From positions 6,927-70,926 of the forward strand of contig NZ_JAPUVR010000098.1 in the NCBI RefSeq assembly GCF_029255125.1: a stretch of 64,000 bases of DNA, given 5' to 3'. Within the stretch, counting starts at the first letter, position 1. Each line of letters begins with the position of its first letter. This DNA comes from Accumulibacter sp. Lineage in GTDB: Bacteria; Pseudomonadota; Gammaproteobacteria; Burkholderiales; Rhodocyclaceae. A program made the position numbers and the translations under genes. The notes under the pieces were generated by a model. It did not search any database, was not told the origin of the DNA, and saw only the letters and a list, made by a program, of their open reading frames with translations. This document shows, in pieces, positions 8,092 to 15,799 of this stretch.

Positions 8092-9630
8092 ATGAACCTG
8101 CTCAGAAGCCTTGCCACAGTCAGCAGCATGACGCTGTTGTCGCGCATCCTCGGTTTCGTGCGCGATTTTGTGATTGCCCGTAGCTTCGGCGCGGGAATAC
8201 TGACGGACGCCTTCTTCGTCGCCTTCAAGCTACCCAATCTGCTGCGCCGGCTGTTCGCCGAGGGGGCTTTCTCGCAGGCTTTCGTTCCCGTCCTGGGCGA
8301 GTACAAGAACCGCTACGGTGCAAACGAAACCCGACAACTGGTCGACCGTGTGGTCAGCCTGCTGTTTCTCGTTGTCCTCGGCGTCACCGTGCTCGGCATG
8401 CTGGCCGCACCGATACTCGTCTATGTCTCGGCCCCCGGCTTTGCAGCCGACAGCGCCAAGTTCGCCTTGACCGTTGAACTGACGCGCATCACGTTTCCCT
8501 ACATCCTCTTCATGTCGCTGGTTGCCGTCGCCGGCGGCATCCTCAATACCTGGAGCCGCTTCGCCGTTCCCGCCTTCACGCCGGTTCTGCTCAATCTGTC
8601 GCTGATCCTGATGGCGCTCTTCGCAACGCCGTACTTCGACCCGCCGATCGTCGCGCTCGCCTGGGCGGTCTTTCTCGGCGGCGCATTGCAGCTCATCTTC
8701 CAGATCCCCAGCCTCGTTCGCCTGGGCATGCTGCCACGCTTTTCGTTGAGTTTGCAGGATGCCGGCGTGCGGCGCATTTTCCGCTTGATGGCGCCGGCCG
8801 TGCTGGGAGTTTCGGTGGCCCAGGTCAGCCTGCTGCTGAACAGTATCTTTGCCTCCTTCCTGAATACCGGCAGTGTTTCCTGGCTCTATTACGCCGATCG
8901 CCTGATGGAATTTCCGGCCGGCCTGCTCGGCGCCGCATTGGGCACCATCCTCCTGCCCTCGCTGAGCAAGTCACACGCCACCGGCCGGCATGAGGAGTAC
9001 TCGCAGCTCCTCGACTGGGGTCTGCGACTGACCTTCCTGCTCGCTGCGCCCGCGGCGCTGGCGCTCGCCATTCTTGCCGTCCCGCTGGTGACGACGCTTT
9101 TTCATCACGGTGCCTTCACGCCGAATGACGTGATGCGCACGCGCGAGGCGCTCGTCGCTTACAGCATCGGCCTGCTCGGAATGATTCTGGTCAAGGTTCT
9201 GGCGCCCGGTTTCTACGCGCGCCAGAACGTGCGCACACCCGTGCGTATCGCCTTGCTCTGCCTACTGGTCACTCAGCTTTTGAATCTGCTGCTGATCCCG
9301 TGGCTGCAGCATGCCGGCCTGGCGCTCGCCATCGGCCTCGCTGCGTGTTTGAATGCCGCACTCCTCTATCGGGGTCTGCGCCGGCAAGGCATCTACTCGC
9401 CGCTGTCCGGCTGGCTAGGCTTCTACGGCAAGCTGGCCGTCGGCCTGCTGGCGATGGCTGCGGCGCTCTGGTTTTCTGCTGGCGCCAACGACGCCTGGTT
9501 GAGCTGGGGTCTGGCGGCCCGTCTGTTGCGTCTTTCCCTCGTCGTGGGCTTCGGCGCGACGGTCTATTTCGCTACACTATGGGTCGCAGGTTTCCGCCTG
9601 AGCGATTTCAGACGCCGGGCGGCCGAGTGA
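8092..9630 (+). CDS. murJ: Lipid II flippase MurJ (MviN)
   Basis: MNLLRSLATVSSMTLLSRILGFVRD, LPNLLRRLFAEGAFSQAFVP, LYYADRLMEFP. Confidence 0.97.
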   Translation: MNLLRSLATVSSMTLLSRILGFVRDFVIARSFGAGILTDAFFVAFKLPNLLRRLFAEGAFSQAFVPVLGEYKNRYGANETRQLVDRVVSLLFLVVLGVTVLGMLAAPILVYVSAPGFAADSAKFALTVELTRITFPYILFMSLVAVAGGILNTWSRFAVPAFTPVLLNLSLILMALFATPYFDPPIVALAWAVFLGGALQLIFQIPSLVRLGMLPRFSLSLQDAGVRRIFRLMAPAVLGVSVAQVSLLLNSIFASFLNTGSVSWLYYADRLMEFPAGLLGAALGTILLPSLSKSHATGRHEEYSQLLDWGLRLTFLLAAPAALALAILAVPLVTTLFHHGAFTPNDVMRTREALVAYSIGLLGMILVKVLAPGFYARQNVRTPVRIALLCLLVTQLLNLLLIPWLQHAGLALAIGLAACLNAALLYRGLRRQGIYSPLSGWLGFYGKLAVGLLAMAAALWFSAGANDAWLSWGLAARLLRLSLVVGFGATVYFATLWVAGFRLSDFRRRAAE

Positions 9631-9660
9631 AATCAGCATGACCAACCAGGAGGAACGACA

Positions 9661-10290
9661 ATGAAACTGATCAGCAACAGCCTCACCGATGGCCAGCCGG
9701 TTCCCGGCGAGTTCGCTTTCTGCATCCCCGATCCCGAGCACCACGTCTGCCTTGGCCGCAACCTCAACCCTCATCTGGCTTGGCGCGAAGCGCCGGCGGG
9801 GACACGCTCCTTCGCGATCATCTGCCACGACCCGGATGTGCCGAGCAAGGGCGACGATGTCAATCAGGAAGGACGAACGGTCCCCGCTTCGCTGCCGCGC
9901 ATCGACTTCTTCCATTGGATTCTGTTTGACCTACCGCCGACGCTTGGTGAGATCGCCGCGGGGAGCTTCTCGAGCGAAGTGACGCCACGGGGCAAGGCCG
10001 GCCCGCATTGTCTGTTCGACGCCCGTCAGGGAATCAACGACTATACCGCCTGGTTCGCGGGCGACAACGACATGCGCGGCGATTACTTCGGCTACGACGG
10101 CCCGTGCCCCCCGTGGAACGATGAAATCGTCCACCGCTATGTGTTTACCGTCTTTGCGCTTGACGTCGAGCAGCTCGACTGCGCAGCAAAGGCAAACGGA
10201 CACCAGGTACGCGCGGCGATGCAAGGGCACATTCTCGCCGAAGCAAGCCTGGTTGCCACCTACACGCTCAATCCATCGCTCGCCGCCTAG
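9661..10290 (+). CDS. YbhB/YbcL family PEBP (Raf kinase inhibitor-like) protein
   Basis: NPHLAW, ICHDPDVP, FFHWIL, YDGPCPP, HRYVFTVFALD. Confidence 0.9.
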   Translation: MKLISNSLTDGQPVPGEFAFCIPDPEHHVCLGRNLNPHLAWREAPAGTRSFAIICHDPDVPSKGDDVNQEGRTVPASLPRIDFFHWILFDLPPTLGEIAAGSFSSEVTPRGKAGPHCLFDARQGINDYTAWFAGDNDMRGDYFGYDGPCPPWNDEIVHRYVFTVFALDVEQLDCAAKANGHQVRAAMQGHILAEASLVATYTLNPSLAA

Positions 10291-10383
10291 CGCGGAAGAA
10301 CACAGGACGCTGGTCGCGGTCAGCCCCTTAGAAACGGCTGCCGCGAGAGCTGGCGCGCCGCGTCGCTTGCCGACCAGAAAACG

Positions 10384-10445
10384 CTGAAGGCCGCGGCAAG
10401 CGGCCTTCAGTTCTCGGCTCGGGGCTGCTCGCGAGAGCAGCCCCG
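10384..10445. terminator. Two adjacent GC-rich hairpins between convergent ybhB-like and hppA genes (probable bidirectional terminator region)
   Basis: CTGAAGGCCGC-ggcaa-GCGGCCTTCAG (10384-10410) and CGGGGCTGCTC-gcga-GAGCAGCCCCG (10420-10445). Confidence 0.7.
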
Positions 10446-10482
10446 GTGCTACAGATGCGAGCAGTCTCGCCTCGCAGAAATC

Positions 10483-12900
10483 CTACTGGATGCTCACCTC
10501 GACGCGGCGTGCTTCGGCAGAATCGCCGGTCCCGGTGGTCACCTGTGGCTTCTTCAGCTCGATCCGGTCCTCAGCGATGCCAACGTTTTTCAGTCCTTCA
10601 CGCACCGCCTTCGCCCGGTTCTTGGCGACTTCCTCGTTCACTGCCTGGCTGCCACTGGGATCGTGGAAACCGGAAATGGCGATCTTGGCGCCTGGGTTGG
10701 CCTTGGCATGCGTAACGACCGCCGCCAGCGTCGTCGCCGCATCAGCCGGCAAGTCGGCCGAACCCACGGCGAAATAGATCTTTGCGGCCGCCGGCGCGCT
10801 GGCAGCGGCCGCTGCCGGTGCTGCGTCGGCCGGTTTGCCCGACGTCGCCGGAACCATCAGTGGCACGATCATCAGGGCAACGATATTGATGATCTTGATC
10901 AGGGGGTTGACGGCCGGTCCTGCGGTGTCCTTGTAGGGATCGCCGACGGTATCGCCGGTAACCGCCGACTTGTGCGCATCCGAACCCTTGCCACCGAAAT
11001 GGCCGTCCTCGATATACTTCTTGGCGTTGTCCCAGGCGCCACCACCCGTCGTCATCGAAATGGCGACGAACAGACCGGTGATGATCGTTCCCATCAACAA
11101 GCCACCCAGCGCCTTCGGGCCGAGCAGCAGGCCGACGAGAACGGGTACGAGCACCGGCAGCAAGGACGGAACGATCATTTCACGAATCGCCGCAACGGTC
11201 AGCATACCGACCGCGCGCGAATAGTCGGGCTTCGCCTTGCCTTCCATGATGCCCTTGATTTCCTTGAACTGGCGCCGGACCTCGATGACCACCGAGCCAG
11301 CCGCCCGGCCAACAGCCTCCATCGCCATGGCGGCGAACAGGTAAGGAATCAGACCGCCCAGGAAGAGGCCGATGATCACCATGTGATCGGACAGATCAAA
11401 ACGCAGACCGCCACCGAAGTTCACTTCCAGGGCATGCGTGTAGTCCGCGAAAAGGACCAGCGCGGCCAGACCAGCGGAACCGATGGCATAACCTTTGGTG
11501 ACCGCCTTGGTCGTATTGCCGACCGCATCGAGCGGGTCGGTCACGTCACGCACCGACTTCGGCAATCCCGACATTTCGGCGATGCCGCCGGCGTTGTCGG
11601 TAATCGGCCCGTAGGCGTCGAGGGCAACGATGATACCGGTCATCGACAGCATCGAAGTCGCCGCGATGGCAATGCCGAAGAGGCCGGCCAGCGCATAGGT
11701 CAGGTAGATCGACGCACAGACGGCGAGCACCGGCAGCGCGCAGGCTTTCATCGAAACCGCCAGACCGGCGATGATGTTCGTCCCGTGACCCGTGGTCGAG
11801 GCCTCGGCGACGCGCTTGACCGGGGAGAAGTCGGTCCCGGTGTAGTACTCGGTAATCCAGACGAGAAGCCCGGTCAGAACCAGACCGATCGCGGCTGACC
11901 AGAAGATGTTCATCGACGAGATCAGGCTGCCATCGGCCAAGGTCACGCCATTGCCGAGCAGCATCGTCGTGATCGGGTAGAAGGCGATCAGCGCCAGAAT
12001 TCCGGCCACCGCCAGGCCGCGGTAGAGGGCGTTCATGATCTTGCCGCCGTCGCTCGCCTTGACGAAGAAGCAGCCGATGATCGAGGCCAGAATCGACACG
12101 CCACCAAGAACGAGCGGATAGACGACGAGGTTGTCGTTCGCTCCAGCAACGCCTTTCAGCATCATCGCGCCGAGCACCATCGTCGCGACGACGGTCACCG
12201 CATACGTCTCGAAGAGGTCGGCCGCCATGCCTGCACAGTCGCCGACGTTGTCGCCGACGTTGTCGGCAATCACCGCCGGGTTACGCGGATCGTCTTCCGG
12301 AATCCCCGCCTCGACCTTGCCAACCAGGTCGGCACCCACGTCGGCCCCCTTGGTGAAGATACCGCCGCCCAACCGGGCGAAGATCGAGATCAGCGAACCG
12401 CCGAAGGCCAGACCGACGAGCGGTTCGACGCTATGCTGCAGATCGCCACCAGCGCCCTTGAGCACGGCGTAATAGCCGGCGACGCCAAGCAGACCAAGTC
12501 CGACGACGAGCATGCCGGTAATCGCACCGCCTTTGAAAGCCACACCGAGCGCCGCGGAAATTCCGCTACGCGCCGCTTCTGCGGTGCGCACGTTGGCGCG
12601 CACCGAAACGTTCATCCCGATGAAGCCTGTCGCGCCCGACAACACGGCACCGATCAGGAAGCCAAAGGCCATCAGCTTGCCCAGGGCAAACCAGATGACC
12701 ACGAAGAGCACAGCGCCGACCAGCGCAATCGTCGTATACTGCTTGGCGAGGTAGGCTGAAGCACCTTCCTGGATCGCCTTGGCGATTTCCTGCATGCGCG
12801 GGTTGCCGGCGGGCAACGAGAGAATCCATTTCGTCATGGCGGCGCCGTACAGGACCGCTATGACCGCGCAAACCAGCGCGAACATCAGAAACGACGACAT
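10483..12900 (-). CDS. hppA: Membrane H+-translocating pyrophosphatase (K+-independent signature) fused to a C-terminal OmpA-like domain
   Basis: [48 protein letters not shown]; after an Ala/Pro linker, [32 protein letters not shown]; RBS GGAGG before ATG 12900. Confidence 0.95.
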
Positions 12901-13032
12901 AAGCAACCTCCCTCTGAAAAGTTACCCGAACCGAGCGGAAGCTCCCCACCGGTCGGTTTAACATCACACCCAAACTGCACAACCTGCCGCCTTCTGCCAG
13001 CAAACGCCGGCAACCTCCAGGGCGGCAACCGC

Positions 13033-13704
<672 letters not shown>

Positions 13705-13816
13705 TCAGATCAAACAATTTATCATATTGTTCATGCAATTACGTTTGCACTCTTGGGCTCCGGCAGCACGTTGTCGTGCTCGACAGGCGGAAACTTACCC
13801 GCAAAAGCGCCGTCGG

Positions 13817-14599
13817 TCAAACCTTTTTGAAGCGATCCTGCATCAAACGTGCATCCTCCGGCGTGTCGACGCCGGCCGTTGGCAGGTGCTCGGCGAGGTG
13901 CACAGTGATCCGGAAGCCGTGCCAAAGGGCACGCAGTTGTTCGAGCGCTTCAAGGTTTTCGAGCGGTGATGGCGCCAGGTGGCAGTAGCTGCGCAGGAAG
14001 CGGGCGCGATACGCGTACAGCCCGACATGGCGGAGAGCGTGCATCCCGGGCGGAAATGTTGAGCGCCCCGCAGCGCTGGTAAAGTGGTCGCGAGCGTAGG
14101 GAATCGGTGCGCGCGAGAAGTACAGCGCATCACCGTTGGCGGCACAGACGACCTTGACCACGTTCGGGTTGAAGAAATCGCCCGCATCGCTCAGTGCGTG
14201 GGCAACCGTTGCCATGTCGGCGCCGGTCGCTGCGAGACGCGCGGCGGTCTGGTCGATCAGTTGCGGGTCGATCAGCGGTTCGTCACCCTGCACATTGACG
14301 ACCATCGTCTCATCGTCCCAAGCGAAGCGTTCGACGACTTCGGCCAGACGATCGGTACCCGTGGCGTGCCCGGCAGCCGTCAGGATGGCGCGCATGCCGT
14401 ACCGCTCGGCGGCCTCCCGCACTTCCGGGTGATCGGTCGCAATGATGACTTCGTCCGCCATCGACAGCAGCGCGCGCTCGGCGACCCGCACAACCATCGG
14501 CTTGCCGCCAAGGTCGAGCAATGGCTTGGCGGGCAGCCGCGTTGACCCGTAGCGCGCCGGGATGACAATTTTGAACGGCGCGGCCGCGGCTGGACTCAT
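13817..14599 (-). CDS. kdsB: CMP-KDO synthetase (3-deoxy-manno-octulosonate cytidylyltransferase)
   Basis: [37 protein letters not shown]. Confidence 0.96.
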
Positions 14600-14772
14600 T
14601 CCGTCTCGCCCGACACCGGGCGCGCCTCATCCGGCAGCATGATCGGAATTCCGTCGCGGATCGGAAAAGCCACCTTGCAAGGCTTGCATACCAGTTCCGA
14701 CTGCGCCTTGAGGTACTCGAGATTCGCCTTGCACACCGGGCAGACGAGGATATCAAGCAGACGAGCGTCCAT
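14596..14772 (-). CDS. ycaR: Trm112-like protein (YcaR)
   Basis: [27 protein letters not shown]; canonical position between lpxK and kdsB. Confidence 0.93.
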
Positions 14773-15799
14773 GGAGTCTCTCCAGTATTGTCTCGAACAG
14801 GTCGGCGTGCTGTGAAACGCCGCTGATGACTGCCTCAACCGGCAGCACCCAGGCTTCTCCGGAGACGTATGCGGCGCATTTTACCGCATCTTTCTCGGTC
14901 ATCAGCAGGACACCATCACGCGCGAAAAGGAGATCGGCAGCACTGTAGGGATGATGGTCAGCAAAGGCGCGAGCGTCCACCTGCAGGCCGAGCGCCGCCA
15001 GATGCTGGAAAAAGCGCTGCGGATTGCCGATACCGGCGAGTGCGTAGATCCTGCGCCCCGACCAGTCGGCGGCCGTGCAGCTGCGCGGCTCACCGCTCAC
15101 GGCAAAGAAACGCTCGCCGACCAGCTTCATCGCGAAATTCGGCAGCGCCTGCGCCGCCTGCGGCAGGACCTCTGGCGGGCCGCCGTTCCAGACGACGGCG
15201 GTGGCCTGGCGCAGGCGCCGCAGCGGCTCACGCAGGGGCCCGGCCGGCAGTAGCCGGCGATTGCCCTGACCGCGCTCGTCGAATACGACCAGTTCGATCG
15301 AGCGCTGCAGGCGATAGTGCTGCAAGCCGTCGTCGGCGACGATCACGTCGCAGTCGGCGTGCGCAGCGAGCAGCGCCTGGCTGGCGGCCACGCGATCGCG
15401 GCCGATGAAGACCGGTACGCCACTGCGCCGAGCGAGCAACAGGGGCTCGTCGCCGACGAGCGCGCTCGGCGAGTCCGGCGCTACCGCCTGGACCTGCGCG
15501 CTGTTCCCGCCGTAACCGCGGCTGACGATCCCCGGGCGCCAGCCGCTGGCAAGCAGGCGCTGGACGAGCCAGAGGACGAGCGGCGTCTTGCCGCTACCGC
15601 CGACGGTCAGGTTGCCGACGACGATGACCGGCACCGGCAAACGGCAGGCACGCAGCCAGCCGCAACGGTAGGCGCTCCGCCGCAAGCCGGCGAGGCCGCC
15701 ATAAAGCCAGGCAACGGGGAGCAGCAGATAAAGCGGCGCCCGCAAACGAGGTTCATACCACCAGCGCGCAAGACGCTGCGCGAGGTCGCCGAAAAGCAT
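14753..15799 (-). CDS. lpxK: Tetraacyldisaccharide 4'-kinase
   Basis: [48 protein letters not shown]. Confidence 0.96.

Follow-up and report, generated by a model that had tools for sequence, protein, structure and literature searches.

What is an OmpA-like domain doing at the end of a primary ion pump? The question is raised by an hppA gene on the minus strand of a 64,000-nucleotide stretch of Accumulibacter sp. DNA (assembly GCF_029255125.1, contig NZ_JAPUVR010000098.1, positions 6,927 to 70,926; hereafter, the window), in which the coding sequence for a membrane pyrophosphatase (mPPase) continues into an Ala/Pro-rich linker and then into an OmpA-like domain. A reading made from the letters of the DNA alone (the sequence-only reading) had proposed such a fusion gene at 10483-12900, and our analysis confirms it at those coordinates; in the list of open reading frames (ORFs) of the window, the minus-strand ORF 10483..12906 is one uninterrupted frame. 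The fusion is real, conserved and selected, and its architecture has already been noted in the literature. As for the role of the tail, we consider it probable (roughly 0.7) that it is a periplasmic peptidoglycan tether and that the H+-pyrophosphatase (H+-PPase) that carries it is otherwise an ordinary pump. (Note that residues are numbered from the TTG codon at 12906, as in P0001, and that these numbers exceed a count from the ATG codon at 12900 by 2.)

The pump portion of the protein is complete. The Pfam model PF03030 (H_PPase; cut-off 29.7 bits) matches residues 15-680 with an E-value of 5.8e-269 and a score of 894.6 bits, and it is covered end to end, from position 1 to position 645 of 645. 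Among the NCBIfam models, the protein scores best with the mPPase equivalog NF001951, reaching 1188.9 bits where 859 are required. The core can be aligned with the solved mPPases 4A01, 8B37 and 4AV3 through residue 684, which is the end of transmembrane helix (TM) 16. Given an alignment of 83 fusion homologues, AlphaFold2 produced a full-length model whose predicted local distance difference test score (pLDDT) averages 86.5, with most of the core at 85-95; superposition of this model on 4A01, 6QXA and 8B37 gives target-normalised TM-scores of 0.86-0.91 at root-mean-square deviations of 2.0-3.1 Å, and the core is thus predicted to adopt the 16-TM fold of solved mPPases. Among these structures, that of the Pyrobaculum aerophilum PPase (8B37) aligns over residues 11-713 with residues 3-685 of the fusion (E-value 2.3e-145; target-normalised TM-score 0.90-0.91). 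The complete membrane PPase that the sequence-only reading had described is therefore borne out both by the alignment, which runs to the end of TM16, and by the model. (Note that Kyte-Doolittle hydropathy calling over-split the helices, giving 23 segments; the TM count of the core comes from the structural match, and hydropathy served only to establish the absence of a segment past TM16.)

The acidic catalytic motifs of mPPases are all present in the fusion and are invariant among the 83 relatives. In TM12 the protein resembles the K+-independent H+-PPases of the Rhodospirillum rubrum HppA type, in that it carries both Lys and Thr in the motif GNTT(A/K)A.(G/T)KG, residues that we take to be the mark of K+-independent mPPases. 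We regard the fusion pump, on the strength of this signature, as K+-independent and presumably H+-pumping. To our knowledge, all characterised K+-independent mPPases pump H+, and for this reason the name given to the protein by NCBI, which includes "sodium-translocating", is best taken as generic. The semi-conserved Glu233 aligns four residues ahead of the position of E301 in the Vigna radiata H+-PPase (VrPPase). What sets the fusion apart from the K+-independent H+-PPases is its length, since those enzymes end a few residues past TM16, whereas the Accumulibacter protein has 123 residues beyond the alignment point at the end of TM16 (VrPPase has 11).

No hydrophobic segment was found in the residues that follow TM16 (hydropathy in the tail peaks at 1.16 and so stays below the threshold of 1.5), and the AlphaFold2 model shows a coil there and then a soluble domain. 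In the published structures of mPPases, the C-termini are on the periplasmic or lumenal side of the membrane. Because there is no hydrophobic segment after TM16, the tail should be on the same side as those C-termini, and thus the OmpA-like tail of the pump is predicted to be periplasmic, as the sequence-only reading had argued. Prediction of topology and structure, which had been suggested as a check on the fusion, in this way returned a protein with the mPPase fold, a disordered linker and a separate OmpA-like domain.

The Ala/Pro linker quoted in the sequence-only reading is present, in frame, after the PPase core, and its disorder is apparent from a pLDDT below 50 at residues 687-703. Linkers of the fusion family are 21-111 residues long, with a median of 40, and consist of 41% Ala, 13% Pro and 10% Val; they have kept this composition but neither a sequence nor a length. 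That of the Accumulibacter fusion, at 23-25 residues, is near the family minimum, and the range within the Accumulibacter clade is 21-25 residues.

By profile and by fold, the tail belongs with the OmpA-like domains. Pfam PF00691 (OmpA) matches residues 711-799 with 46.9 bits against a gathering threshold of 27.2 (52 bits when the tail is taken alone), and the tail covers positions 1-96 of the 98 in the profile. Residues 708-806 form a confident beta-alpha-beta-alpha-beta-beta domain in the full-length model, and a model of the tail only has a pLDDT of 86.5 and a predicted template modelling score (pTM) of 0.77. Comparison of the tail model with the Protein Data Bank by Foldseek gave 119 matches at E <= 0.001, and the best 50 of the 119 are all OmpA-like domains or complexes containing one. 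At the top, with TM-scores of 0.76-0.83, are 1OAP and 2HQS (Escherichia coli Pal), 5U1H (OprF) and 4G4V (Acinetobacter baumannii Pal), together with A. baumannii OmpA (AbOmpA) bound to diaminopimelate or to a pentapeptide (3TD4 and 3TD5); by sequence, the best solved match is Pal 4G4V (E-value 9e-7). The OmpA/MotB-like domain and motif of the sequence-only reading are thus upheld, with the Asp/Arg pair of the motif intact. The span that had been given for the domain, 10483-10782, needs a small correction, as it took in the stop codon; the true span is 10486-10785.

Asp749 and Arg764 of the tail are invariant in the 83 fusion proteins and in 34 tails from several types of carrier protein, and they align with the TDERG...RRA segment of Pal 4G4V. 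(The other tail residues that are invariant in the 83 fusions are G746, G752, N757, R800 and R801.) In AbOmpA it is the pair D271/R286, with the same 15-residue spacing, that contacts the diaminopimelate carboxylate. On the basis of this correspondence, the tail most likely binds peptidoglycan, through Asp749 and Arg764. Comparison of the fusion gene with those of six congeners gives ratios of nonsynonymous to synonymous substitution rates (dN/dS) of 0.01-0.05 (core), 0.05-0.20 (tail) and 0.16-0.58 (linker). Purifying selection thus acts on the tail within the genus, as on a domain with a function. The coordinates of these features are collected in Table 1.

Table 1. Positions of the hppA-OmpA fusion gene, its parts and its flanking signals in the window.
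Feature	Position	Strand	Details
hppA-OmpA fusion coding sequence, complete	10483..12900	-	805 aa counted from ATG at 12900
Membrane pyrophosphatase core, TM1-TM16 (by PF03030 and alignment with solved mPPases)	10855..12900	-	residues 3-684
K467...T470, candidate K+-independence signature	11497..11508	-	GNTTK467AVT470KG; VrPPase has GNTTAAIGKG (A and G at these positions)
Ala/Pro-rich disordered linker	10786..10854	-	residues 685-707
Pal-like OmpA-family domain	10486..10785	-	residues 708-807, 100 aa, beta-alpha-beta-alpha-beta-beta
Asp749-Arg764, candidate diaminopimelate-binding pair	10615..10662	-	15 residues apart; motif GFHD749...764AKAV
Stop codon TAG	10483-10485	-	
Shine-Dalgarno sequence GAGGGAGG	12907-12914	-	6 nt upstream of ATG at 12900; abuts alternative TTG at 12906
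Terminator-like hairpin CTGAAGGCCGC-TTGCC-GCGGCCTTCAG	10384-10410	-	73 nt downstream of the fusion stop codon

The tail shares with the domains of Pal, OmpA and OprF (1OAP, 2HQS, 4G4V, 5U1H and 3TD3-3TD5) its fold, the spacing between Asp and Arg and a terminal RRVE strand. These proteins, however, are anchored in the outer membrane, through a lipid or a beta-barrel, and come to the wall from its outer side, whereas the Accumulibacter tail hangs from the inner membrane. Unlike Pal, the tail carries neither a signal peptide nor a lipobox, and it scores only 34.8-39.8 bits with the model TIGR02802, for which the cut-off is 125.35; unlike 4G4V, it has deletions of 4 and 2 residues ahead of the last strand. 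Thus the tail resembles Pal in fold only. The comparison with MotB has similar limits. NCBIfam gives weak matches to MotD, MotB, MotY and TssL, those to the MotB models being 14.8-18.8 bits against cut-offs of 250-283. The fusion would be like MotB/PomB, TagL/TssL and ZorB in that an ion-conducting or envelope machine of the inner membrane bears a putative peptidoglycan anchor on a flexible periplasmic linker. Unlike MotB/PomB it has no MotA-like partner and no predicted plug helix, and nothing in its mechanics calls for a stator that is fixed in place; its anchor shares a polypeptide chain with a primary pump of 16 TM helices instead of belonging to a 5:2 motor. We therefore see the fusion as an apparent analogue of the MotB/PomB anchors and not as a member of that group.

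Within Accumulibacter the fusion is the rule. A complete copy of hppA is present in 35 of 37 species genomes and is fused in all 35; in the remaining two the gene is cut by contig ends. The counterpart tail in the closed genome NC_013194.1 (Candidatus Accumulibacter phosphatis UW-1) is 77% identical to the tail encoded in the window. We also searched for the architecture more widely and mapped its taxonomic spread, both of which the sequence-only reading had proposed. An even sample of 301 genomes from the order, in which each fused case was confirmed by its reading frames, contains this type of PPase in 210 genomes, and the PPase is fused in 18 of these, from 11 families. A tail-directed search of 5.8 billion proteins yielded approximately 100 clusters that combine PF03030 with PF00691; the named ones among them belong to Accumulibacter, Propionivibrio, Casimicrobium, Rubrivivax, Rhizobacter and further Burkholderiales.

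The architecture had been described before. A 2024 review reports an mPPase with a C-terminal OmpA-like domain from Paucibacter sp. KCTC 42545 (A0A0U2VTE8, 810 aa) and from further Burkholderiales, and says of the role of the domain that it "remains to be elucidated" (PMC11210485, PeerJ 2024). The Accumulibacter protein is like that of Paucibacter in being a K+-insensitive mPPase with a C-terminal OmpA-like domain (approximately 110 residues in Paucibacter) and in coming from the same order; it differs in belonging to an Accumulibacter/Propionivibrio clade, with a core that groups with unfused PPases and a much shorter linker. In the review the domain was compared with full-length OmpA, and the topology, binding residues, selection and distribution given here come from the present analysis. 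Our literature search found no functional study of an mPPase-OmpA fusion, as the sequence-only reading had stated, but the architecture itself was already in the 2024 review; beyond this review, the literature yielded nothing on an Accumulibacter hppA with an extra domain or on fusions of inner-membrane proteins to OmpA-like domains.

The relatives of the tail indicate where it comes from. When 1.84 billion cluster representatives were searched exhaustively with HMMER, 829 relatives emerged at E <= 1e-10. The majority of the closest 148 are small and share one layout, in which an acidic N-terminus is followed by a single TM helix (at about residues 10-40), and a linker then leads to the C-terminal domain; they carry no lipobox. 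The subfamily, which has the motif G[FY][HT]D..G....N.ELAK.RA, is therefore natively anchored in the inner membrane. One such protein is encoded in the window's own genome: it has approximately 155 residues and one TM (MASKDDDEITAVVAGVLAGIALAVVGVVYAV...), stands alone, and has a domain of the same subfamily that is 45% identical to the PPase tail. The bitopic OmpA-like proteins of Betaproteobacteria, among them this paralogue, P0180 and P0216, are 45-69% identical to the tail and share its motif and inner-membrane origin; the anchor of these bitopic relatives is a single helix, unlike that of the fusion, which is a 16-TM pump. (The gene for the paralogue, L010 at G000:C87, ORF end 1498, minus strand, adjoins one for an EamA-type transporter, and there is a near-copy of it at a contig edge, L011 at G000:C112:122-373.) In f23, one family of the order, a bitopic OmpA-like gene (MFDE.D.ETG..., one TM) lies immediately downstream of hppA in three genomes; the upstream PPase has a linker only in G160 (L062) and G306 (L063) and is fused in G339 (L024). 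The f23 gene pair is a split or neighbouring version of the association between pump and tail.

The same tail is also found on unrelated membrane proteins. It is located at the C-terminus of CoxB, subunit II of cytochrome oxidase (P0060-P0063, P0066 and P0108), of the cbb3 subunit FixP (P0080), of a reaction-centre cytochrome of the PufC type (P0072) and of DUF937/YidB-like proteins (P0048, P0057, P0064 and P0083), and at the N-terminus of Amt, after the signal peptide (P0097, P0110, P0116, P0118 and P0121). In every such carrier it is attached at a periplasmic end, with an Ala-rich spacer as the joint, which adds indirect evidence for a periplasmic tail on the PPase. (Two further features of the relatives can be recorded here. 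The bitopic proteins P0127, P0129, P0134, P0142, P0147, P0155, P0156 and others share W..LLLLLW..G.GP....CC after the TM, that is, a Gly-Pro turn followed by paired Cys residues, and P0122, P0123, P0124, P0154 and P0186 contain two or three tandem copies of the OmpA-like domain.)

At their C-termini, relatives of the PPase are in one of three states, being unfused, extended by a linker only, or fused. Unfused PPases end 13-18 residues past NPLIK, and linker-only PPases have an Ala/Pro extension but no domain. At six linker-only loci (L027, L028 and L031-L034, in G206, G243, G300, G284, G178 and G135), the extension is approximately 45-75 residues long and no OmpA-like ORF was found within approximately 900 bp downstream of hppA; a split-gene origin of linker-only PPases is therefore rejected, the exceptions being those of family f23. 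(Five of the six proteins terminate in Lys, as ...PGK or ...PKK. Braun's lipoprotein is cross-linked to peptidoglycan via its C-terminal Lys, and to call these ends loosely reminiscent of it would be pure speculation.) Every linker-only form is nested within fused clades in the core tree, which points to loss of the domain.

The fused state changes 11 times on the best core tree, at least 6 times on well-supported branches, and the 10 fused sequences that make up the core clade of the Accumulibacter fusion are placed with unfused PPases, at a distance from a large fused clade of Burkholderiales. However, a tree in which one branch separates all unfused PPases from the extended ones was not rejected by the approximately unbiased (AU) test (p 0.078, difference in log-likelihood 87), and we therefore make no claim that the fusion was gained repeatedly and independently. 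From the tail tree, which is weakly resolved (101 columns, 281 rows), we used only a 43-row clade of PPase tails. This clade has 90% support and contains the Accumulibacter tail; 42 of its 43 rows are PPase tails, and they include tails whose PPase cores are distant from the Accumulibacter core. Either the fusion is old and has been lost many times or 3' ends have been exchanged between hppA genes.

These observations are consistent with the following picture of a tethered pump. Pyrophosphate (PPi) would be hydrolysed on the cytoplasmic side and H+ expelled to the periplasm in an ordinary mPPase cycle. On the periplasmic side, TM16 would be followed by a flexible Ala/Pro spacer, some 25 residues long, and this by the Pal-like domain, in which Asp749 and Arg764 would hold, non-covalently, a stem peptide containing diaminopimelate, and each protomer of the pump would thereby be tied to the sacculus. 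Such a tether would most likely immobilise or position the pump and simultaneously form a strut between inner membrane and wall. The tail is probably not part of catalysis, since its subfamily normally hangs from a single helix and is joined to several unrelated inner-membrane proteins. A promiscuous domain, a native anchor of one helix, a variable linker and repeated loss with the pump left intact all favour positioning, immobilisation or a strut over a catalytic role. The suggestion of the sequence-only reading that the pump is localised to specific sites or mechanically coupled is speculative; comparison of the relatives speaks for a tether module of general use rather than for a mechanism peculiar to the PPase. 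Three sets of observations weigh against the tether. Approximately 91% of the PPases of this clade in the order sample have no OmpA tail. At least 5 lineages lack the domain but have retained the spacer; tail-less PPases work and the domain has been lost repeatedly, which argues that the tail is dispensable for pumping. The third, and the main weakness, is reach: a fully stretched linker of 25 residues would span approximately 85-90 Å and the domain approximately 30 Å, and the periplasmic part of active MotB measures 50-115 Å, with approximately 118 Å judged enough to reach the wall (PMC5647336). Therefore the tether would be nearly taut, or the wall would have to be closer than in model organisms.

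Could the tail have been selected simply as an envelope strut, with a stable and abundant 16-TM PPase merely replacing the single-helix anchor and pumping irrelevant to the fusion? This idea accommodates the bitopic layout of the closest relatives (one TM, linker and domain), the many unrelated inner-membrane carriers of the same tail, and the stand-alone bitopic copies, of which one adjoins hppA in f23 and another is found elsewhere in the window's genome. Nevertheless, the PPase tails form a long-lived clade of their own, and the fusion is fixed across a genus that also keeps a free bitopic paralogue; both facts suggest PPase-specific selection, and we consider a strut in which pumping plays no part unlikely. 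A nearly taut tether keeps alive the thought that the tail regulates the pump mechanically or allosterically, by coupling engagement of the wall to gating via TM16, which belongs to the inner ring of helices around the exit path of the ion. The linker of the Accumulibacter clade is indeed very short and is attached directly to TM16, and MotB, in which peptidoglycan binding is coupled to channel activity, would offer a precedent (PMC7564593). A linker that varies five-fold in length among relatives and is poorly constrained in sequence is, however, unsuited to precise transmission; the model gives a coil and no plug-like amphipathic helix; and unfused and linker-only relatives retain all catalytic and gate motifs. 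Regulation of this kind therefore strikes us as quite improbable.

We think it very improbable, too, that the domain binds a periplasmic protein (so as to stabilise the dimer or to recruit a partner) rather than peptidoglycan. The residues expected to contact diaminopimelate are invariant across all carriers, a hallmark of the peptidoglycan-binding members of the family, and no conserved partner gene is located beside hppA in the window. On the other side, mPPases are homodimers, and so two tails would sit close together; OmpA-like domains can dimerise and bind protein partners, as Pal binds TolB, and the complexes Pal-TolB (2HQS) and YfiB-YfiR (5EB1) are among the Foldseek matches. It is hardly credible that the fusion is an artefact of assembly or annotation, or a recent read-through of two genes. 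The assembly is admittedly a draft of 150 contigs, but we found no evidence to support an artefact, which the sequence-only reading had named as a possible refutation and which is not borne out: closed genomes, including NC_013194.1, and the approximately 100 independent clusters share the architecture, and these, together with the complete copies of the genus, all fused, purifying selection, a terminator-like hairpin placed after the whole fused ORF and a uniform composition (the GC content is even across the junction of PPase and tail), rule out an artefact, a chimera or a chance ORF. A periplasmic peptidoglycan tether on an otherwise ordinary H+-PPase remains the reading that we prefer.

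With respect to expression, the ATG at 12900 is the likely start of the fusion ORF rather than the TTG at 12906, because the Shine-Dalgarno sequence lies 6 nt before the ATG and abuts the TTG; this agrees with the start assumed earlier, and the closest homologue, P0002, likewise has 805 residues. A scan for sigma-70 promoters upstream of the fusion gene found none. The terminator-like hairpin in Table 1, which has a weak T-tract, was identified solely by a scan for the consensus. The neighbourhood of hppA (8092-15799 in the window) consists of putative housekeeping genes for envelope and nucleotide functions, with names that are putative and read from translations: upstream of hppA, and on its strand, are adk (13033-13704), kdsB (13817-14599) and lpxK (14753-15799), whereas on the other side two plus-strand genes, one murJ-like (8092-9630) and one PEBP/YbhB-like (9661-10290), run towards hppA. 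The genome (3.83 Mb, 99.96% complete) contains one PF03030 gene, which is the fusion, and one gene for a soluble family-I PPase. With only one PF03030 gene in a genome of this completeness, the fusion is therefore the cell's only membrane PPase, with no spare paralogue. (Several other Accumulibacter genomes, namely G001, G016-G019, G022, G023, G028 and G029, encode a second, divergent mPPase, with 32-34% identity and ORFs of 779-875 residues where complete; one of these matches UW-1. This second mPPase is absent from the window's genome.)

Our claim is modest, given that both the literature and the databases already contain the architecture and that the present evidence shows no new mechanism. 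What the analysis adds is the genus-wide fusion in Accumulibacter, the three C-terminal states, the split arrangement found in f23, the figures for selection, and, for the subfamily to which the tail belongs, an origin in the inner membrane and an occurrence on several energy-transducing carriers. A wider lead is that the tail's occurrence on CoxB, FixP, PufC, Amt and single-helix proteins, together with the copies beside hppA, defines a candidate family of tethers between the inner membrane and peptidoglycan. More tentatively, an Ala/Pro spacer with a Pal-like domain might be a mobile periplasmic cassette that has been grafted repeatedly in Betaproteobacteria and pins the sites that generate the proton-motive force (PMF) to the sacculus; that the H+-PPase, subunit II of the aa3 oxidase, FixP of the cbb3 oxidase, the reaction-centre cytochrome and Amt were all acquired as its carriers in this way is likewise doubtful. 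If the cassette reading were true, sites of PMF generation would be fixed rather than freely diffusing.

For mPPases, which are usually treated as free-standing pumps of 16 helices, a version wired to the wall raises the question of whether primary ion pumps may have fixed positions. Accumulibacter is a key organism of enhanced biological phosphorus removal, and the energetics of PPi and polyphosphate are central to it. A tail that is present throughout the genus constrains where its pump can sit; on the cassette reading, the tail would also mark the H+-PPase of this polyphosphate accumulator as a pump of the cytoplasmic membrane that faces the wall, and not as a pump of acidocalcisomes or polyphosphate granules.

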